In this document: one piece after another, positions 18,417 through 35,225 of the stretch | Layout: every line of letters starts with the position of its first letter | Numbering within the stretch: the stretch's first letter is position 1 | DNA from: Lysobacterales bacterium | GTDB lineage: Bacteria; Pseudomonadota; Gammaproteobacteria; Xanthomonadales; SZUA-36 | Assembly (NCBI GenBank): GCA_011773845.1 | Contig: WVWV01000033.1 | Location: forward strand, 7,113 to 71,112 | Direction of reading: 5' to 3' | DNA length: 64,000 nt | Translations under genes and position numbers: made by a program | The notes under the pieces: model-generated | Database searches by the model: none | Told to the model about the DNA's origin: nothing | Seen by the model: only the letters and a program-made list of their open reading frames with translations

Positions 18417-19937
18417 CTAGCCTCTGCGGCGGCGGGACCGGCCGCGACGCCCCGCTGCGGGACTGGCCGCGGCGGGCTCTGGCGGCGGGGGCAGTTCGGG
18501 CAACTGCTGCTGCGTTTCGAGGCCATCCATGATCAGCGCCCGCATGGCCTCGTCGATGGCAGGGTCGGTCGCGATCGGCGTATAAGCGGCCAGGCGACGC
18601 TCCACCTCGTCATTGGCGCGCTGCGGCAGGTCCCGGGCGCCCCGTTTCTCCCAGTTCTCACGGTTTTCCCGATCGATGACGGGATCGGTCAGGTACAGTT
18701 CGCGGGGCCAGTGCTGCAGCGTGTGCTCCGAGGTGATCAGGTGGTTGTCCCGCATCAGGTCGTCCACCAGGCCCTGGGCCGGCAGGTCGTCCAGCACCTG
18801 GATCTCGCGCACGAAATGCAGCGCCTGGCCGCAGACCTCGTTGTCGAACACCAGCTTGGGCAGGCTGAAGGTCAGCACGAAATCGAGCATGCCCGGCCCG
18901 GACACGGAATTGACCCCGGCGATCGCGGCCAGCAGGGCACTGCTGAATGTCTCGCCACCGGCCTGGGCGTCGAGGAACTTGCCGTCCGACAGCGCCATGT
19001 ACGCCTGGGTCGGCAACCCCAGGGACTTGGCGATGGCCACGTAGCCCGCATTCAGGTGCTGGGCCTCGATCGCGGCCATGGGCGAAGACGCCGCTTTCAT
19101 GTGAAAGGTGGCGGGGGCGCCGCCGAACAGGACCGGCGCGCCGGGGCGCACGATCTGTGCCATGGTGAGGCCGGTCAGCACGTCCACGCAGTGGAATACC
19201 AGCGCCCCGACCAGTGTCACCGGGGCGATCAGGCCCATCAGCGTCACCGGCACGATCTCGACCGCTATACCCGCTTCCACGCAATCCAGCAGGTTCTGAC
19301 AGGAATCCTCGCCGTAGCGGAAGTTGCCGGTGGCGGTGATGGTGAAGATGGACATCGGCTTCGCCACCAGGTCCGCGCGGCTGTCCCTGAACATCTCCAG
19401 CATGGCCGCCATGCGCGGCACGCCATGCTCGGTGAATGCGCCGGACACCATGGGCTTGCGGGTGGTGACCAGCAGCATGTACAGGCGCCAGGCGTCGGAG
19501 ACCTGCGACTCGATGTCCTGGTTGGTCGAAAAAGCCGTGGACGGGTAGGCGATGTGTTCCAGCCCGTCGCAGAGGCGCGCATACTCGATGAAATCCCGCG
19601 AATCCGCCAGGCGCGTCTCGCCGGTGCGGTGGTCCTGTATCTTCAGCCCGCTGGACCCCGGCGTGAAGTGCACCCGGTCGCCGCCGATCTCGGTATAGGG
19701 CTGGCCGTCGCGGTCGTACAGGGTGAACGAGCCGGGCGCGTCGGCGATGGCCTGGTCCACGACCTCGGGTGGGAACAGGATGCGGCCGGACGCATCGGCT
19801 TTCAGCCCGTGGTCCAGCAGGCGAGCCTTGAGCGGCGCGCCGCGGATTTCCATCCCCCTCTCGGCCAGCAGCCGCTTCGCCTCGGCCAGGATGCGGCCGA
19901 TCATCTCCTCGCTCAGTATGTTCAGGCTGGGTCGCAT
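18417..19937 (-). CDS. Trimethylamine-methyltransferase-family (MttB superfamily) protein, non-pyrrolysine, paralogue B
   Basis: Uninterrupted ORF with no in-frame TAG. '[24 protein letters not shown]' is the typical MttB N-terminus, followed by a TIM-barrel-length body. Start set at ATG 19937. The C-terminus is Arg-rich ('[11 protein letters not shown]'). Confidence 0.85.
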
Positions 19938-19953
19938 CCTCGCGTTCCTGTGT

Positions 19954-21477
19954 TCACCGGGCGACAACGCCCTCGATCTCATTCTTGCGCCGCGCAACGT
20001 AGTCGGTCAGGGCCTCGCGGATGCCCGGATCCGACGGCGGTTGCTCGTACTCCGACAGCAGGCGCTTCCAGACGCCGTTGGCCCGCTGCGCCACGTCGGC
20101 ACTCCCGGCTTCCTGCCAACGCTCGAAATTGAGCCGGTCGGAAACCAGCGGTTCGTAGAACGCCCTCTCGTACCGCTCCAGTGTATGCCGAGTCCCGAAA
20201 TGATGGCCACCCGGCGGCACCCCGGCAATAGCCTCCAGCGCCAATTCGGCCTCATCCACCGCAATCGGCTCGAGCGAGGCTGCCATCATCTGCAGCATCT
20301 CGGCGTCCACCACCAGCTTCTCGAACGAGGCCGTCAGCCCGCCCTCCAGCCAGCCAGCCGCATGGTTGACGAGGTGGCAGTGCGCCAGCAGGCAGGCCCA
20401 CAGGGACAGGCCGCTCTCGTACGCGGCCTGCGCATCGACGCTGTTGGCCGTGGTGGTGTTGCTGGACCGGAACGGCAAGCCGAGCGCCCGCGCGATCTGG
20501 CCACTGGCAATCACCAGGCGCGCGTACTCCGGCGTGCCGAGCGCGGGTGCGCCGCTGCGCATGTCGACGTTGGAGGCGAACGCGCCGTACATGACCGGCG
20601 CGCCCGGCCTGACCACCTGCGCCAGTGCCACCACCGCCAGCACCTCGGCGGTCTGCTGCACCAGCGTGCCGGCTAGCGTGGCCGGGCTCATGGAGCCGGC
20701 CAGCGTGAACGGCGTGATGCAGGCAACCTGGCCGGCGGCGGCCAGTTCCATCACCGCCTCGGCCATGGGCACGTCCAGCTGGCGGGGCGAGTTGGTGTTG
20801 ATGATGCCCAGCACCGCGGGGTCTGCGGCCAGGCCCTCGCGATCGGTGCCCAGCGCAATCGCCGTCATTTCCAGGCAATCCACCGTGCGCGCCCGACCCA
20901 GTGGGTAGGCCTGTGCGTTCTTGTCCAGCAGGGTCAATTGCGCGAGGTACAGGTCCAGGTGACGCGATTCCGGCGGCAGGTCCATCGGCTCGAAGGCACC
21001 GCCGCCCTCCTGGTGGATGATGTTGAGGCTCTGCACCAGGCGCAGGTAGTCGCACAACTCGGCGTAGCTGCCCGGCCGGCGGCCGCGATCGAGATCGCTG
21101 CAGAAAGCCGGCCCGCCGACCGAGGCGAAGACCATGTGATCGCCCCCGATCACAAGGTCCCGCGCCGGGTTGCGCGCCCGCAGGGCGAATCGCCCGGGCG
21201 CCGTGGCGCCGAGCTCGCGCACCAGGTCGCGCGCGAAACACACCATGGCAGTGGATTCGTCGACCTCGGCGCCCGCGGCGCGCAGCAGCGACCGGCTCTC
21301 GGCCTCCAGGAAGCGCATCCCGTGCTCCTCCAGCACCGCCAGCGCCGCCTCGATGATGACTTCCACCTGGTCTTCACTCAGCAGTGCCAGCGGGGGGTGG
21401 GGGTTGCGCAGGTCCTGCCACGGCAATTGATGGACGGCCGCTGGCTGGCGCCGGACCCTGCGCGAACGCCTGCCCAC
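19954..21477 (-). CDS. Trimethylamine-methyltransferase-family (MttB superfamily) protein, non-pyrrolysine, paralogue A
   Basis: Uninterrupted ORF. '[24 protein letters not shown]', 'NTNSPRQLD' and '[10 protein letters not shown]' are MttB-like. GTG start at 21477, 8 nt after the upstream stop, gives the Arg-rich N-terminus '[10 protein letters not shown]' common in this family. Confidence 0.85.
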
Positions 21478-33400: not shown

Positions 33401-33402
33401 CG

Positions 33403-34569
33403 TTACAGTTCCTCCAGCCCGCGCTTGTCCAGCGCGCGGGCGATGACCAGACGCTGCAGCTCGCTGGCGCCCTCCCAGATGCGGTCGACGCGGATTTCCC
33501 GCGTGAACCGCTCGGCGCAGTTCTCGCGCATGTAACCGCGGCCGCCGAAAATCTGTACCGCCCGGTCGGCGATCCGGCTAGCGGCCTCGGAGGCATACAG
33601 CTTGGCGATCGAGCAGCGGGCATGCAGCGACTTGACGTTCTCACCCCGGTCATGGGCATGCGCCGCCTCGAAGGTGATCAGGCGCGCCGCCCACAACTCC
33701 GTGACGCTGTCCGCCAGCATCGCCTGCACCAGTTGCTTGTCGATCAGCCGCTCGCCGCTGACCCGGCGCTGCTGCGCGAATTCGGTGGCTTCCTCGATCA
33801 GGCGCGTCGCCGCGCCGCAATCCCGCGCCGCGATCATCAGCCGCTCGCGACGAAACCAGCTGTGGGTGTATGCCATGCCCTCGCCCTCGGCGCCGATGCG
33901 GTTTTCCGCCGGCACCTCCACGTCCGTGAATTGCAGCTGTGGGTGGTGGTGATCGAAGGTGTGGCTGAACAGCGGGGTGCGCAGCACCTCGATGCCGGGG
34001 GATGCCCGGTCCACCAGGAACAGTGCCTCGCTGCCGGCATGCGGTCCGGAGGCGAGGCGCGCCTGCACGAACATGAAATCGGCCAGGTTGGCGCTGGTGA
34101 CATACCATTTCTCGCCGTTGATCCGGTAGCGGTCCCCGGCCACCTCGGCGGTCGTCTCGATCACCACGTCGGAGCCGGACTCCCGCTCGGTGATCGCGTA
34201 GCACTCCTTGCGGGTGCCCTGCATCAGGGGCAGGACATAGGCCTCGAGCTGCGCCTCGCGGCAGGCCTCGAACATCCATCGCTGCGGCTCGGAAAAACAC
34301 CAGCACAGGGCGTTGGTAACCCGGCCGAGCTGCTCCCACACCGCCACCTGGTCGACCGTGCGCAACTCCAGGCCGCCGTATTGGCGGGGCACGTCCATGG
34401 CGCTGAAACCCAGCTCCACGGCCATCTCTCGATGCCGCTTGCCCACCTCCGCCGGCAGCCGGCCGCCGTTCATCTCCGCCTCCACCTCGTGCGGTATGAG
34501 TTCCCGTTCCGCGAATTGCCGGGCCTTCGCCTGCCACTCGGTGGCCGTCGCGTCGAGTTGGATCTTCAT
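33403..34569 (-). CDS. Acyl-CoA dehydrogenase family protein
   Basis: 388 aa with 'CYAITERESGSD', 'NGEKWYVT' and 'IFGGRGYMRE...RIWEGASE'. The ATG at 34569 overlaps the TetR stop as ATGA. Confidence 0.9.
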   Translation of the reverse strand: MKIQLDATATEWQAKARQFAERELIPHEVEAEMNGGRLPAEVGKRHREMAVELGFSAMDVPRQYGGLELRTVDQVAVWEQLGRVTNALCWCFSEPQRWMFEACREAQLEAYVLPLMQGTRKECYAITERESGSDVVIETTAEVAGDRYRINGEKWYVTSANLADFMFVQARLASGPHAGSEALFLVDRASPGIEVLRTPLFSHTFDHHHPQLQFTDVEVPAENRIGAEGEGMAYTHSWFRRERLMIAARDCGAATRLIEEATEFAQQRRVSGERLIDKQLVQAMLADSVTELWAARLITFEAAHAHDRGENVKSLHARCSIAKLYASEAASRIADRAVQIFGGRGYMRENCAERFTREIRVDRIWEGASELQRLVIARALDKRGLEEL

Positions 34570-35225
34570 GTCCGTGCGCGCTCCTGTGCGGGGTCGCCAA
34601 AATGGTCCGGGAAGGTATGCGCCAGGTGGTCCATGGCGATGCCCAGGGCCTGCCGGCGCGTCATGTGGCGGGGCGAGACCAGCATGTCCAGCCACAGCCC
34701 CTCGGACATGGCGGCCATGCCGCGGGCCACGGACTCGGGTTTGATCCCGGGATAATCGCCCTCGGCAATGAGGTCGCCGCACAACTGGCGCAGTTGCCGG
34801 TCGTAGCCGCGATCGCGGTCCGCACAGAGTCTGCGATAGGTGGGGCGGGACTTGGACTCGCCCCAGAATGCAAACCACACCGCCAGCTTGTTGCGATCAC
34901 ACACGGAAGGGTGGAAATCCACTTCCACCAGCGCCGCCAGGCGCTCGGCGCTGCTCGGGCCGGCGCGGTCGAGCGCCCTCTCCCAGCGGGACTTGTACTC
35001 GTCCACCACGTAAGCCAGCGTTTCCAGCAACAGGCGCTCCTTGCTGTTGAAGTGGAGGTTGATGATGCCCTGGCTGAGCCCGGCCTCCGCGGCGACGGTA
35101 GCGATGGTGGTATCGGAAAGGCCCTGGCCTGCGATCGAGCGGATGGTCGCCTGGATCAGTTGCGCGCGCCGCTTCTCCCGGGGCTCGGTGCGCCGGGGCC
35201 GGGCCTTGGCAACCGCGCCACTCAT
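34566..35225 (-). CDS. TetR/AcrR-family transcriptional regulator
   Basis: HTH region 'RRAQLIQATIRSIAGQGLSDTTIATVAAEAGLSQGIINLHFNSKE'. Start set at ATG 35225 (GGAAG upstream). The longest ORF begins at TTG 35291. Confidence 0.8.
   Translation of the reverse strand: MSGAVAKARPRRTEPREKRRAQLIQATIRSIAGQGLSDTTIATVAAEAGLSQGIINLHFNSKERLLLETLAYVVDEYKSRWERALDRAGPSSAERLAALVEVDFHPSVCDRNKLAVWFAFWGESKSRPTYRRLCADRDRGYDRQLRQLCGDLIAEGDYPGIKPESVARGMAAMSEGLWLDMLVSPRHMTRRQALGIAMDHLAHTFPDHFGDPAQERART

Follow-up and report, generated by a model that had tools for sequence, protein, structure and literature searches.

A PotF-subfamily importer module directly upstream of a vitamin B12-dependent methyltransferase cassette in a Lysobacterales bacterium

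Gene content of the array and its flanks

The window, a stretch of 64,000 nt, carries 16 genes between positions 18417 and 35225, all on the minus strand (Table 1). A preliminary description had read this region as a co-directional 16-gene array, and the coordinates and gene families it gave were borne out by ORF calls, by family assignments that all exceeded the Pfam gathering scores, and by the public annotation of the source contig (JABAOE010000980.1 of GCA_012974925.1, a MAG labelled "Xanthomonadales bacterium"), which matches the gene calls. Its junction sizes were all reproduced as well. Counting from the regulator gene, neighbors are separated by -4 (TetR/ACAD; negative values are overlaps), 2 (ACAD/SBP1), 2 (SBP1/SBP2), 9 (SBP2/ATPase), 21 (ATPase/permease), -4 (permease/permease), 29 (permease/Rieske), 97 (Rieske/corrinoid; 106 with the ATG start of the public annotation), 25 (corrinoid/DUF1638), -7 (DUF1638/small protein), 40 (small protein/pterin methyltransferase), 19 (pterin methyltransferase/RACo), -4 (RACo/MetF-like), 8 (MetF-like/MttB-A), and 16 nt (MttB-A/MttB-B).

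The 16-gene order was also found in other metagenomes, so the array is more than a product of chance. The conserved unit exceeds these 16 genes: a plus-strand arm running divergently (35416-47023) belongs to it, and so, in the ancestral arrangement, does the MTHFR-like gene at 15951-16823.

Table 1. Features of the array and its flanks, in order of position
Feature	Position	Strand	Basis of assignment	Identity of orthologues
MTHFRb, second MTHFR-like gene	15951-16823	-	Pfam MTHFR	60-64%
DAO-family FAD amine oxidoreductase, convergent with MttB-B	17007-18299	+	Pfam DAO, 237 bits; best NCBIfam L-pipecolate oxidase and aminophosphonate oxidoreductase, both under cutoff	67% (L024)
MttB-B, non-pyrrolysine MttB-superfamily methyltransferase, orthogroup B	18417-19937	-	Pfam MTTB, 251 bits	79-84% in cassettes
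MttB-A, non-pyrrolysine MttB-superfamily methyltransferase, orthogroup A	19954-21477	-	Pfam MTTB, 615 bits	71-77%, in stand-alone and inserted cassettes alike
MetF2-type methylenetetrahydrofolate-reductase-like protein	21486-22352	-	Weak Pfam MTHFR match	56-66% (cassette MTHFR of L024-L026)
RACo/RamA-type reductive activase of corrinoid enzymes	22349-24343	-	Fer2, RACo_linker, Raco_middle, RACo_C_ter	
MtgD-type methyl-tetrahydrofolate:corrinoid methyltransferase	24363-25265	-	Pterin_bind; NCBIfam PRK07535, 365 bits (cutoff 259)	
PF13769 small protein	25306-25614	-	Pfam	
DUF1638 protein	25608-26204	-	Pfam	
MtgC-type corrinoid protein	26230-26940 (end 26931 with alternative start)	-	B12-binding, B12-binding_2; DIHDIG motif	76-89% (stand-alone cassettes)
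Terminator-like hairpin	26950-26984	-	A-tract, interrupted 14-bp stem, U6	
Rieske non-haem-iron oxygenase, GbcA/Stc2/CntA quaternary-amine clade	27038-28243	-	Pfam Rieske, Ring_hydroxyl_A; CxH...CxxH motif; GbcA model 297 bits (cutoff 670)	
ABC permease	28273-29076	-	BPD_transp_1	68-86%
ABC permease	29073-29990	-	BPD_transp_1	68-86%
ABC ATPase	30012-31190	-	ABC_tran, TOBE_2	68-86%
SBP2, b-type PotF-subfamily binding protein	31200-32288	-	62% identical to SBP1	65-70%, distinct from a-type
SBP1, a-type PotF-subfamily periplasmic binding protein with signal peptide	32291-33400	-	SBP_bac_8; PotF model 341 bits (cutoff 636); 43% identity to E. coli PotF	
Acyl-CoA dehydrogenase (ACAD)	33403-34569	-	All three ACAD domains; best NCBIfam AcrC 182, CaiA 163 bits, no equivalog reached	72-79% (L004-6, L009, L011, L012, L017)
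BetI-like TetR-family regulator	34566-35225	-	TetR_N, TetR_C_6 (BetI-type C-terminal domain); NCBIfam BetI PRK00767 127 bits (cutoff 118), TIGR03384 123 bits (cutoff 201)	57-69%, first in operon at all related loci
Candidate TetR operator	35321-35342		Perfect inverted repeat TGAATGAAT-GATT-ATTCATTCA	
Class-III aminotransferase, first gene of divergent arm	35416-36747	+	Aminotran_3; best NCBIfam GntE-like (441/525), also HemL-like	74-81% at all related loci
FP1, CrtI/amine-oxidase-family flavoprotein	36765-38384	+	Pfam Amino_oxidase; paralogous to FP2	80-82% (gammaproteobacterial loci)
FP2, CrtI/amine-oxidase-family flavoprotein	38377-39924	+	Pfam Amino_oxidase; paralogous to FP1	
GcvT-family tetrahydrofolate-dependent aminomethyltransferase	39905-41134	+	GCV_T, GCV_T_C; best NCBIfam Tdm C-terminal domain, GcvT, DmdA, all under cutoff	72-76%
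ADP-forming acyl-CoA ligase	41038-43245	+	Pfam, NCBIfam	57-62% (L004, L006, L011, L012)
PuuC/BADH-like aldehyde dehydrogenase	43254-44807	+	Pfam, NCBIfam	
Enoyl-CoA hydratase	44808-45632	+	Pfam, NCBIfam	
Glutamine-synthetase-like protein	45629-47023	+	Pfam, NCBIfam	

Distribution of the importer genes and the corrinoid genes

We favor, at a probability of roughly 0.55, the reading that two units, each conserved independently of the other, make up the 16-gene array. The neighborhoods compared were a small sample, 7 anchored on MttB and about 15 on the Rieske gene, with the window and L027 counted as one among the 15 Rieske-orthologue lineages.

The preliminary description knew of no pathway with this architecture. 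The eight corrinoid genes at 18417-26940, however, make up a system that Mausz et al. described in 2025 (PMC12478193), the aerobic MtgBCD/RamA/DUF1638/MetF2 system. As a cassette of 8 to 9 genes with 56-89% identity, this system stands alone in L025, L026, L028, L029, and L030, and it is found without Pot or Rieske genes in five of six independent genomes sampled. The A- and B-type MttBs travel together with it, and the DUF1638 and PF13769 genes lie side by side in every copy examined; DUF1638 has been implicated in the reductive reactivation of cobalamin (PMC12478193). MttB-A, which has no internal stop codon, shares 36% identity with D. hafniense MtgB, 41% with S. meliloti 4yyc, and 29% with MttB-B. 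The cassette does not serve this importer exclusively.

The importer genes show a distribution of their own. A permease gene precedes the Rieske gene, directly or with one gene between, in 10 of the 15 lineages with a Rieske orthologue, which upholds the proposed tie between a Pot-type importer and an N-demethylation enzyme of the GbcA/Stc2 type. The closest solved structures to the Rieske protein are 3n0q, Stc2 (3vca/4qup), and CntA; no reductase partner for it was found in the window. The core of the importer unit is also present on plasmids of cultured roseobacters (Rieske proteins 44-47% identical), and pW43C of Parasedimentitalea marina encodes FP1 (61%) and GcvT (46%) as well.

Eleven related lineages had enough sequence downstream of the Rieske gene to look for corrinoid genes, which were present in five and absent in six. 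They occur there in three arrangements (window/L027, L024, and L004-6) with different MttB orthogroups, and the MttB paralogues of the related loci are non-orthologous to those of the window (26-30% identity). Both the TetR/ACAD/Rieske arm and the divergent arm are found without corrinoid genes in L008, L011, L012, L017, L018, and L020. The five occurrences in three arrangements make co-operation between the importer unit and the cassette plausible, though optional, and the two probably do co-operate. Hence the linkage of Pot and MttB genes across genomes recurs but is facultative, and the proposed coupling of importer and demethylation in one architecture holds for the row of genes itself, which would represent two joined units rather than one new pathway.

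In L008, L017, L018, and L020 the Rieske gene is followed by an MTHFRb orthologue, and L008 shares the window's downstream genes as well, whereas in the window the cassette and the DAO gene separate the two. This synteny suggests that, in the window's lineage, the cassette was inserted together with the DAO gene between the Rieske gene and the MTHFR gene that ancestrally adjoined it; no compositional sign of insertion was detected. MTHFRb has no significant similarity to the MetF2-type protein. Besides the window, only L027 and L024 had the DAO gene, which was absent after the five stand-alone cassettes.

The candidate operator and the Rieske/corrinoid junction

The candidate operator lies in the AT-rich intergenic region between the divergent TetR and aminotransferase genes. 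Allowing up to 3 mismatches, the window contains it once (0 expected), and in the alignment its core, AATGAAT..TTCATT, is kept in the corresponding position of 9/9 related loci. The BetI-like repressor would bind this palindrome between two divergent promoters. The only large gap in the array, between the Rieske and corrinoid genes, contains a terminator-like hairpin (-17.2 kcal/mol; z = -2.57 against shuffles) that was also flagged by a pattern scan and is conserved in L027. A strong hairpin likewise follows the Rieske gene in L012, which has no cassette.

That the whole array stands under one TetR, as originally proposed, appears overstated given the single operator, the hairpin with its U6 tract at the junction, and the existence of the cassette as an autonomous operon elsewhere; direct TetR control of the corrinoid genes is improbable. 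The regulator might still act indirectly. No separate promoter was detected for the cassette (a sigma-70 scan covering 19 kb yielded none at all), so it may be expressed only by read-through from the importer unit, and no more than about 15-25 nt lie between the end of the hairpin and the corrinoid-protein start codon.

Binding-pocket residues, substrate, and a proposed pathway

The preliminary description suggested comparing the pockets of the two binding proteins with PotF, whose residue roles have been described (PMC8666671). SBP1 retains W37, D39, Y40, W244, D247, D278, and Y314 but carries S87R, A182E, E185T, and L348G. Among 120 homologs of the subfamily, conservation is 98-100% at the proximal primary-amine site and in the aromatic box, whereas the distal site is rebuilt, with R87 in 117, G348 in 113, and E185 in none; E185 is at least 96% conserved among PotF homologues (PMC8666671). 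Judged by these residues, SBP1 and SBP2 are not canonical putrescine binders. In SBP2, position 185 is D and positions 84/85 are H-G/S, and L008 has SBP2 as its sole binding protein. The two proteins form two conserved orthologous lineages differing at positions 84/85/185, which fits the earlier suggestion of two related ligands.

The MttB residues were called from alignments of 25-28% identity in which local motifs align cleanly. MttB-A retains R312 and H348, with Gly at 97 and 356. In MttB-B, MtgB position 312 is Gln and the His of position 348 is missing, and the C and D types also lack the R312/H348 pair. All characterised MttB enzymes of the betaine type share the conserved carboxylate-binding Arg (PMC13080624).

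We infer the substrate class from the BetI-like regulator, the clade of the Rieske oxygenase, and the SBP and MttB residues. The substrate could plausibly be, as was proposed, a methylated amine distinct from glycine betaine: MttB-B lacks the carboxylate-binding Arg and the SBPs lack E185. Against a general exclusion of glycine betaine, the Arg/His pair is retained in MttB-A, whose own substrate could therefore be an acidic betaine, perhaps even glycine betaine. The SBP ligand could also be an omega-amino acid or a betaine rather than a diamine, since the invariant Arg87 could bind a carboxylate; the primary-amine site and aromatic box are shared with PotF.

Under the composite reading, the first unit (27038-35225 on the minus strand, 35416-47023 on the plus strand, and ancestrally 15951-16823) would be a catabolic regulon for an amine. 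Its left arm codes for the ACAD, the PotF-subfamily importer with two binding proteins, and the Rieske oxygenase, and its right arm for the aminotransferase, FP1/FP2, GcvT, CoA ligase, aldehyde dehydrogenase, enoyl-CoA hydratase, and glutamine-synthetase-like enzyme. The compound taken up by the importer would be a cationic amine whose primary amino group is free and whose distal group is modified, probably by N-methylation. That primary amine would become an acid through the action of the aminotransferase and aldehyde dehydrogenase, yielding a betaine-type intermediate. Methyl groups could then be removed by the O2-dependent Rieske oxygenase, by flavoprotein and GcvT, and, where the cassette is present, by cobalamin-dependent MttB, with MttB-B acting on non-acidic forms and MttB-A on the acidic form; the carbon chain would be handled as a CoA thioester. 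This order is conjecture because the enzyme-specific NCBIfam matches of this unit all fall far under equivalog cutoffs. The second unit (18417-26940), an autonomous aerobic cassette of MtgC, DUF1638, PF13769, MtgD, RamA, MetF2, and two MttB paralogues, passes methyl groups from methylammonium compounds to cob(I)alamin and on to tetrahydrofolate.

The vitamin B12-dependent cassette is thus a widespread system that has already been described. The importer and catabolic module directly upstream is uncharacterised, and its gene content points to a conserved regulon, probably for the uptake and catabolism of an organic amine that is likely N-methylated.

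Composition of the array and its corrinoid cassette

GC3-guided gene calling and ORF listing recovered 16 consecutive minus-strand genes in the window. Their successive junctions measured -4, 2, 2, 9, 21, -4, 29, 97/106, 25, -7, 40, 19, -4, 8, and 16 nt (106 nt with the ATG start of the public annotation, 97 nt otherwise). By Pfam, the upstream genes encode a TetR regulator with a BetI-type C-terminal domain, an ACAD, two SBP_bac_8 binding proteins (SBP1 and SBP2), an ABC ATPase with a TOBE domain, two permeases, and a Rieske/Ring_hydroxyl_A oxygenase. The downstream genes encode a B12-binding corrinoid protein, DUF1638 and PF13769 proteins, a pterin-binding methyltransferase, RACo, an MTHFR-like protein (MetF2), and two MTTB proteins (MttB-A and MttB-B). 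The array of the preliminary description, with its families and junctions, was thus reproduced in full.

We conclude, with a probability of roughly 85%, that the array consists of two units in a modular architecture: unit 1, which runs from the TetR to the Rieske gene and includes a divergent plus-strand arm, and unit 2, the corrinoid cassette. The cassette belongs to a known system, and the importer, Rieske enzyme, and regulator are divergent members of known families. New here are the conserved unit-1 regulon, a PotF subfamily without E185, and the recurrent, facultative docking of corrinoid modules behind unit 1. A literature search found no paper on any of these three, nor one that connects MttB to Rieske enzymes or to transporters of the polyamine type. 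Homarine catabolism (homABCDER, PMC13236597) was considered and ruled out because its gene content differs.

Positions of the features discussed, in the window or in related loci compared with it (L numbers)
Feature	Sequence	Positions	Strand
16-gene array	window	18417-35225	minus
Unit 1, TetR to Rieske gene	window	27038-35225	minus
Unit 1, divergent arm	window	35416-47023	plus
Unit 2, corrinoid cassette	window	18417-26940	minus
DAO gene	window	17007-18299	
Second MTHFR-like gene (MTHFRb)	window	15951-16823	
Inverted repeat	window	35321-35342	
Hairpin at the Rieske/corrinoid junction	window	26950-26984	
Desaturase-family and hypothetical genes	window	13281-15944	minus
Second hypothetical gene of this group	window	13281-14132	minus
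Desaturase-family and hypothetical genes	L024	17652-19560	
Sulfotransferase and hydroxylase genes	window	7236-10195	
Sulfotransferase and hydroxylase genes	L008	12679-15328	
MFS transporter and flavin oxidoreductase genes	window	242-3655	minus
Right boundary of the catabolic region	window	47116-50890	
tRNA-Thr(TGT)	window	48399-48474	
Amidohydrolase gene	L004	15028-16782	
Amidohydrolase gene	L005	15110-16786	
PotD-fold binding protein gene	L031 (Parasedimentitalea marina pW43C)	15291-16352	
PotD-fold binding protein gene	L032 (Leisingera thetidis)	10791-11849	
Dioxygenase and HD-domain genes	L025 (Woeseiaceae GCA_034522415.1)	13148-14605	
PYLIS_3 match	window	18893-18992	minus
PYLIS_3 match	L024	12453-12552	
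PYLIS_3 match	L025	12528-12627	
PYLIS_3 match	L026	12479-12578	
PYLIS_3 matches	L006	18271-18370, 19849-19950	

An aerobic MtgBCD system, a corrinoid-dependent glycine betaine methyltransferase and split methionine synthase, has been described in Ruegeria pomeroyi DSS-3 and Phaeobacter inhibens (Mausz et al. 2025, PMC12478193, which cites Price et al. 2018 as a further source). In R. pomeroyi, MtgC and MtgD are indispensable for the aerobic demethylation of glycine betaine and for methionine synthesis, and proteomics implicated pfam06253 MtgB proteins, RamA, a DUF1638 protein, and a MetF paralogue. The genes of the system are often clustered in an operon-like fashion in marine Gammaproteobacteria, and genomes contain up to seven pfam06253 paralogues with no substrate assigned (PMC12478193). 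The cassette is the exact parts list of this system (an MtgC-type corrinoid protein, MtgD, RamA/RACo, DUF1638, a MetF paralogue, and pfam06253 methyltransferases), and its host is likewise an aerobic proteobacterium. Therefore, the claim that no described pathway has this architecture fails for half of the array.

The corrinoid protein carries B12-binding and B12-binding_2 domains (Pfam) and a DxHxxG motif, DIHDIG, at residue 119. MtgD matched Pterin_bind and PRK07535 (365 bits; cutoff, 259), RACo contained all three RACo domains plus Fer2, and the DUF1638 and MTHFR matches were likewise present (Pfam). The two MTTB-domain proteins (pfam06253) scored 615 and 251 bits, and neither gene is interrupted by an internal stop codon. 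The cassette differs from the described systems in that its parts form one compact eight-gene unit with a PF13769 protein and two distant MttBs (29% identical), of which MttB-B lacks the carboxylate-binding Arg/His. Immediately ahead of it are a Pot-type importer and a Rieske operon, whereas for R. pomeroyi the published study indicates OpuD, a transporter of the BCCT type. MtgE, the homocysteine S-methyltransferase module behind the second role of the system in methionine synthesis, had no homocysteine-binding counterpart (PF02574) among the window proteins scanned; in L026, the distance between a PF02574 gene and the stand-alone cassette is about 6 kb.

MttB-A has thousands of environmental homologues at 70 to 78% identity. 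Seven neighborhoods on long contigs were sampled around A-type MttBs (four) or D-type MttBs (three). The cassette stood alone in five of the seven (five of six independent genomes; L025, L026, and L028 to L030): the surrounding genes were unrelated and of a housekeeping-like kind, and neither a Pot importer nor a Rieske gene occurred within 10 kb. The stand-alone gene order was (MttB-D)-corrinoid protein-DUF1638-PF13769-MeTr-RACo-MetF2-MttB-A-MttB-B. The window arrangement was repeated in the other two, L027 (95% identical and effectively the same species) and L024 (a related genome). A pairwise identity matrix resolved four MttB orthogroups, A and B from the window and C and D from related loci. 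Identity was 71 to 77% within A, 79 to 84% within B, about 50% between C and D, and 24 to 30% between C/D and A/B. The A and B MttBs always accompany the cassette.

Recurrence and regulation of unit 1

We used the Rieske protein as an anchor to scan a species-representative genome collection and a metagenome collection, with synteny assessed by tblastn. Fifteen lineages contained a Rieske orthologue of at least 53% identity (window and L027 counted once), all of them uncultured Gammaproteobacteria (Lysobacterales/Xanthomonadales, an Oceanospirillales MAG, and unclassified). Close homologues of SBP1 (65 to 75% identity, long contigs) had the same architecture, in which aminotransferase-flavoprotein-flavoprotein-GcvT-CoA ligase diverges from TetR-ACAD-SBP-SBP-ATPase-permease-permease-(amidohydrolase)-Rieske-MTHFR-MttB-MttB-corrinoid protein. 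A minimal variant, TetR-ACAD-Rieske plus the divergent arm, was found in L009, L011, L012, and L017, followed in L011 and L012 by unrelated sugar genes. Five loci had the Pot importer (L008, L016, L018, L020, and L021), and the window/L027, L024, and L004 to L006 had both importer and corrinoid genes. A permease gene lay 5' of the Rieske gene in 10 of the 15 lineages, either directly or with one amidohydrolase gene in between (L004 and L005). Corrinoid genes were present in 5 and absent in 6 of the 11 Rieske lineages with enough downstream sequence, counts that come from small neighborhood samples picked on long contigs by a pattern-based retrieval that reaches close relatives only. The proposed linkage of Pot and MttB genes therefore recurs beyond the window but is facultative.

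An MTHFR-like orthologue of MTHFRb (60 to 64% identity) comes next after the Rieske gene in L008, L017, L018, and L020; MTHFRb has no significant similarity to the MetF2 of the cassette. L008 and the window also have distant downstream genes in common, encoding a TPR-repeat sulfotransferase and an Asp/Arg beta-hydroxylase-family protein; these lie downstream of the MTHFR-like gene, and L008 is the Oceanospirillales MAG. The simplest reading of these gene orders is that, in the window lineage, the Rieske gene became separated from its ancestral MTHFR partner by insertion of the cassette and the DAO gene. A recent horizontal insertion visible by composition was ruled against, as GC and GC3 show no difference between the cassette and unit 1. 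L004 to L006 carry another version of the cassette at the same position (MetF2-type MTHFR, MttB-C, MttB-D, and corrinoid protein), and L024 has genes for MttB-D and an SSF transporter ahead of the A/B cassette. The occurrence of corrinoid modules behind the Rieske gene in three different arrangements argues for functional synergy and against a fixed, dedicated 16-gene pathway. We judge the odds that the two units cooperate functionally to be slightly better than even.

A more distant version of the core that includes no corrinoid genes (Rieske, 47%; flavoprotein FP1 of the divergent arm, 61%; GcvT, 46%; TetR, 38%) is located on plasmid pW43C of the cultured Parasedimentitalea marina W43 (NZ_CP033222.1, about 76.6 to 93.5 kb), and a Leisingera thetidis plasmid has a looser Pot-like ABC/TetR/Rieske (44%) neighborhood.

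Several further genes were recorded around the loci. The amidohydrolase gene between the second permease and Rieske genes of L004 and L005 is of the Amidohydro_3 family and is absent from the window; the compound imported by these organisms may be an amide conjugate. In L005 (ERZ25039600 contig_43560), the ACAD, amidohydrolase, Rieske, MTHFR, and CoA ligase genes are fragmented relative to the near-identical L004 from the same sample, reflecting either assembly frameshift errors or a decaying copy. A fatty-acid-desaturase-family gene and hypothetical genes follow MTHFRb on the same strand in the window and L024 and may share its transcription unit. The L024 counterparts of the desaturase and the second hypothetical gene are 61% and 75% identical; the latter has no Pfam match in the window and a weak AP_endonuc_2 match in L024. 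About 15 kb from the cluster, an MFS transporter gene adjoins a gene for a 708-aa OYE-like flavin oxidoreductase fused to Pyr_redox_2, the architecture of DgcA/StcD/trimethylamine-dehydrogenase-type amine demethylases; it is possibly a further methylamine-catabolic gene. At its right boundary, the catabolic region gives way to genes for an IPTL-CTERM-sorted protein, tRNA-Thr(TGT), a SPOR-domain protein, a BirA-like biotin ligase, and PlsY. A genomic-island boundary at the tRNA was considered and rejected: the neighboring ORF encodes the IPTL-CTERM protein rather than an integrase, and housekeeping genes follow. Thus, there is no sign of a tRNA-anchored island.

In the 190-nt intergenic region between the TetR and aminotransferase genes, an AT-rich island harbors a perfect 22-bp inverted repeat, TGAATGAAT-GATT-ATTCATTCA. 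Its core is kept at the same place in nine of nine aligned loci, and with up to three mismatches allowed it is single-copy in the 64-kb window, with no second TetR operator ahead of the cassette. The repeat is a strong candidate for a TetR operator serving both divergent promoters. The regulator itself scored 90 bits with the BetI-type ligand domain TetR_C_6; of the two BetI models, it passed PRK00767 (127 bits; cutoff, 118) but fell short of TIGR03384 (123 bits; cutoff, 201), and its gene is not beside betA/betB.

The sole large gap in the array, between the Rieske and corrinoid protein genes, holds a hairpin with an A-tract, a 14-bp interrupted stem, and a U6 tract at about 26948 (-17.2 kcal/mol; z = -2.6). 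It was also flagged by a terminator scan, is kept in L027, and ends about 15 to 25 nt before the start codon of the corrinoid protein gene. L012, which has no cassette, has a very strong hairpin after its Rieske gene, so the window hairpin may be the ancestral operon terminator. A sigma-70 promoter scan gave zero matches in 19 kb, an uninformative result in DNA of 68% GC. A 5' signal specific to the cassette was rejected, as the regions upstream of the corrinoid protein gene do not align between inserted and stand-alone cassettes. An Rfam scan of the window and four loci at gathering thresholds matched one tRNA and PYLIS_3 within MttB coding sequence and nothing else, with no cobalamin or other riboswitch. 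The closeness of the hairpin to the start codon, together with the lack of a detectable promoter in a scan that gave none elsewhere either, counts against a clean division into two operons. Possibly, the cassette is expressed by partial read-through, which would make it attenuated and indirectly TetR dependent.

The Rieske protein scored 297 bits against the GbcA model NF058607 (cutoff, 670) and is not an equivalog. Like GbcAB, Stc2, and CntAB, it has Rieske [2Fe-2S] and catalytic domains and is tied to betaine-type regulation; GbcA, Stc2, and CntA are its closest named and solved relatives. Unlike GbcAB and CntAB, it has no adjacent reductase partner: no ferredoxin-reductase-type (GbcB/CntB) gene was found among the window proteins scanned, and an MTHFR-like gene comes next in most loci.

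Ligand pockets of the binding proteins and methyltransferases

In PotF, the primary amine is bound at a proximal site (S38, D39, and D247) with an aromatic box (W37, W244, and F276), and the distal site comprises S85, S87, A182, E185, D278, and L348 (Kröger et al., PMC8666671). D39, D247, D278, and E185 are at least 96% conserved among 250 PotF homologues (PMC8666671). We aligned both window binding proteins, their orthologues, and their 120 closest database homologues to PotF numbering, and the alignment with the PotF structures left no ambiguity. The window proteins belong to the PotF/PotD fold family (SBP_bac_8; PotF structures matched at E = 1e-95 to 1e-98) and are 43 to 47% identical to PotF. 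Both keep the proximal D39 and D247, the aromatic box (W37, W244, and F/W276), Y40, and Y314. W37, Y40, W244, D247, D278, and Y314 occurred in 120 of the 120 homologues and D39 in 118. The distal site, in contrast, is rebuilt (S87R, A182E, and L348G): Arg87 was found in 117, Glu182 in 107, and Gly348 in 113 of the 120, and E185 in none (Thr in 57, Asp in 40, Met in 12, Ser in 6, and Ala in 2). NCBIfam PotF scores of 341 and 370 bits, about half the cutoff of 636, are below equivalog level.

The ATPase with TOBE domain and two permeases are as in the Escherichia coli putrescine importer PotFGHI and in Pseudomonas aeruginosa SpuDEFGH. The importer departs from these in being co-operonic with the Rieske oxygenase, ACAD, and BetI-like TetR and in having two tandem binding protein paralogues from separate orthologous lineages, 62% identical to each other and 65 to 72% to their own orthologues. 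The a-type lineage (SBP1) has Q84-A85 and T185, and the b-type lineage (SBP2) H84-G/S85 and D185. Atu4243 is a GABA-binding PotF-like protein, and P. aeruginosa AgtB may be named alongside it. A single permease/ATPase set with more than one binding protein, each presumably for a related ligand, recalls P. aeruginosa Cbc, where one ABC core recruits several binding proteins for different quaternary amines (Chen et al. 2010, as cited in PMC12478193). However, the window proteins are of PotF/PotD type rather than choline/betaine-binding type, and their genes are in tandem inside the operon.

From these pockets, we infer that the ligand presents a primary ammonium to the proximal site and that, unlike putrescine, it does not have a simple primary amine at the other end. 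The distal end could be either a bulkier methylated ammonium in an enlarged, still net acidic site or a carboxylate held by Arg87. We tentatively favor a methylated di- or polyamine-type substrate, at somewhat less than even odds, and consider an omega-ammonio acid rather unlikely.

The PotD-fold binding proteins of pW43C and Leisingera are encoded beside a homologous Rieske gene, in pW43C also beside flavoprotein genes. Both keep the aromatic cage (W37, Y40, W244, W276, and Y314), and their amine-binding carboxylates are replaced (D39G, D247T/S, and D278C). This pocket looks suited to caging a quaternary ammonium and supports the general idea that the enzyme core handles methylated amines. 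In the Leisingera locus, an agmatinase-family gene lies beside a second binding protein gene.

In Desulfitobacterium hafniense MtgB, mutagenesis and a ligand-bound structure showed that glycine betaine is held by Y97 and F356 (cation-pi) and by R312 and H348 (carboxylate) (Picking et al. 2026, PMC13080624). All characterized nonpyrrolysine MttB members retain R312, and the substrates of all of them are acidic quaternary amines; other betaine-specific members do not share the aromatic pair (PMC13080624). We rebuilt the MtgB sequence from the PDB alignment, verified the numbering offset, and aligned all orthogroups to it. The motifs around 312 and 348 aligned cleanly at an overall identity of 25 to 28%.

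Residues of the four MttB orthogroups at glycine betaine-binding positions, from alignment to MtgB
Orthogroup	97	312	348	356
MttB-A	G	R	H	G
MttB-B	S	Q	no His	V
MttB-C	G	S	E	L
MttB-D	G	S	A	L

The MtgB glycine betaine site is thus incomplete in both window MttBs, of which MttB-A keeps the carboxylate pair only and MttB-B neither pair. The window MttBs share the TIM-barrel MttB fold, cognate corrinoid protein, activase, and THF methyltransferase of MtgB, MtcB, MtpB, MtyB, and MthB (Krzycki and Ferguson laboratories; PMC13080624, PMC8604678). MttB-A, because it keeps R312 and H348, is compatible with some acidic betaine as substrate; glycine betaine is conceivable, though the aromatic pair differs. 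The characterized enzymes come from anaerobes and act on acidic quaternary amines, whereas MttB-B, -C, and -D have Gln or Ser at 312 and no H348 and are predicted to act on a nonacidic methylammonium compound, a class for which no MttB member has been characterized so far. MttB-C and MttB-D adjoin the Rieske gene in related loci. The suggestion of a substrate other than glycine betaine thus draws its strongest support from MttB-B, but this enzyme is cassette borne and present also in genomes without the importer.

Pyrrolysine-dependent trimethylamine methyltransferases (MttB) were ruled against by the lack of an in-frame stop and TIGR02369 scores of 280 and 285 bits (cutoff, 525). Rfam PYLIS_3, the pyrrolysine insertion element of mttB, nevertheless matched just above its gathering threshold in these nonpyrrolysine genes, which have no in-frame UAG. 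The matches probably reflect coding-sequence homology rather than a functional element and could mislead automated annotation. In L025, genes for a GBBH-like/TauD-family dioxygenase and an HD-domain protein directly follow the stand-alone MttB-B gene. The pair resembles TmpA/TmpB, which convert 2-(trimethylammonio)ethylphosphonate to glycine betaine; if they correspond, this hints that the cassette there handles glycine betaine or a related product.

A candidate pathway and its alternatives

A hypothetical order of reaction steps can be drawn from the gene content, although the enzyme-level matches of unit 1 all fall far below NCBIfam equivalog cutoffs. Binding of an inducer to the BetI-like repressor would allow expression of both arms, and the importer would bring in a cationic amine that is probably N-methylated and whose primary amino group is free. 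The aminotransferase (GntE/HemL-like) and a PuuC/BADH-like aldehyde dehydrogenase would convert the amino end to a carboxylate, giving a betaine-type acid. Methyl groups could leave by three routes: to formaldehyde by the Rieske oxygenase, to methylene-THF by the flavoprotein pair and GcvT, and, where present, by MttB/corrinoid proteins to methyl-THF, which MTHFR-like enzymes would oxidize. The Cai/Bco and Dmd pathways process carbon chains with a CoA ligase, an ACAD, and a hydratase, and by analogy these enzymes would handle the chain here. A GS-like enzyme may gamma-glutamylate an amine in a Puu-like manner.

The preliminary description had read the 16 genes as one TetR-repressed operon for an undescribed, dedicated pathway, with the Pot importer feeding a methylated polyamine or omega-amino quaternary amine to MttB-A and MttB-B. 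We find this unlikely. The junctions are tight or overlapping throughout, no promoter is detectable in the short stretch between the hairpin and the corrinoid protein gene (about 15 to 25 nt), the arrangement is identical in L027 and similar in L024, and both the MttB-B without its carboxylate-binding Arg and the noncanonical binding pockets would suit such a pathway. Against a single operon under one TetR stand the single-copy operator, the terminator-like hairpin at the junction, and the same A and B orthologues in a stand-alone cassette operon in five of six independent sampled genomes. Six of 11 Rieske lineages have no corrinoid genes, the MttBs of L004 to L006 are nonorthologous, and the corrinoid machinery is already described (PMC12478193). 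The converse, that an ordinary putrescine/spermidine uptake and gamma-glutamylation/transamination locus lies by chance beside a housekeeping glycine betaine demethylase/split methionine synthase cassette, is improbable. It agrees with the public annotation of the binding proteins as putrescine binding, with the PuuA-like, PuuC-like, and class III aminotransferase genes nearby, and with a cassette that stands alone elsewhere and whose R. pomeroyi homologue serves glycine betaine demethylation and methionine synthesis. Yet none of the 120 subfamily members has E185, a residue kept in at least 96% of PotF homologues, the importer is co-operonic with a quaternary-amine-type Rieske gene and a BetI-like regulator in most loci, and the three arrangements of corrinoid/MttB genes behind the Rieske gene are hard to obtain by chance.

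Within the modular architecture, the imported compound might instead be an omega-ammonio carboxylate (gamma-butyrobetaine, delta-valerobetaine, beta-alanine betaine, GABA/5-aminovalerate, or N-methyl forms). Arg87 would bind its carboxylate, the CoA ligase, ACAD, and hydratase would act as in Cai/Bco or Dmd, and MttB-A and the Rieske enzyme would demethylate it. We regard this as rather unlikely as well, though it would account for Arg87 in 117/120 and E185 in 0/120 homologues, for R312 and H348 in MttB-A, for CaiA and AcrC among the closest named relatives of the ACAD, for a CoA ligase resembling 3-hydroxypropionate- and 4-hydroxybutyrate-CoA ligases, and for the BetI-like regulator and GbcA-like Rieske enzyme. 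The DmdABCD pathway is paralleled by GcvT, CoA ligase, ACAD, and hydratase. However, Glu182 is gained, Asp278 is kept, and SBP2 has Asp185, leaving the distal site net acidic, and Arg87 may simply pair with Glu182. The proximal D39 and D247 are 98 to 100% conserved; the aminotransferase, aldehyde dehydrogenase, and GS-like enzyme imply a free primary amine; and MttB-B, -C, and -D lack the carboxylate-binding residues.

A further proposal, possible but doubtful, is that uncultured Gammaproteobacteria of marine and sediment origin (Lysobacterales/Xanthomonadales and Woeseiaceae relatives) break down N-methylated di- or polyamines or amino-quaternary amines, such as methylated polyamine fragments or trimethylated diamines, by a route not described before. 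The PotF-derived binding protein pair, with its remodeled distal pocket, would import the substrate, and a new Arg-less MttB class (B, C, and D) would demethylate a nonacidic methylammonium via cobalamin, parallel to the O2-dependent Rieske enzyme.

In oceans and sediments, what becomes of methylated nitrogen compounds bears on nitrogen recycling, one-carbon flux, and vitamin B12 demand. The 2025 description of the aerobic MtgBCD system left the role of the extra MttB paralogues open, and the locus offers testable leads: a PotF-family importer subfamily without the hallmark putrescine-binding glutamate and a conserved TetR regulon with a defined candidate operator. The three MttB orthogroups without the carboxylate-holding residue are abundant, with thousands of environmental homologues each at 70 to 80% identity. 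Since the cultured P. marina W43 has the core module on a plasmid, experiments are feasible. The identity of the ligand would give a function to widespread genes annotated as "putrescine transport" or "trimethylamine methyltransferase" and would show whether O2-dependent and B12-dependent demethylation are alternative entries into the same pathway.
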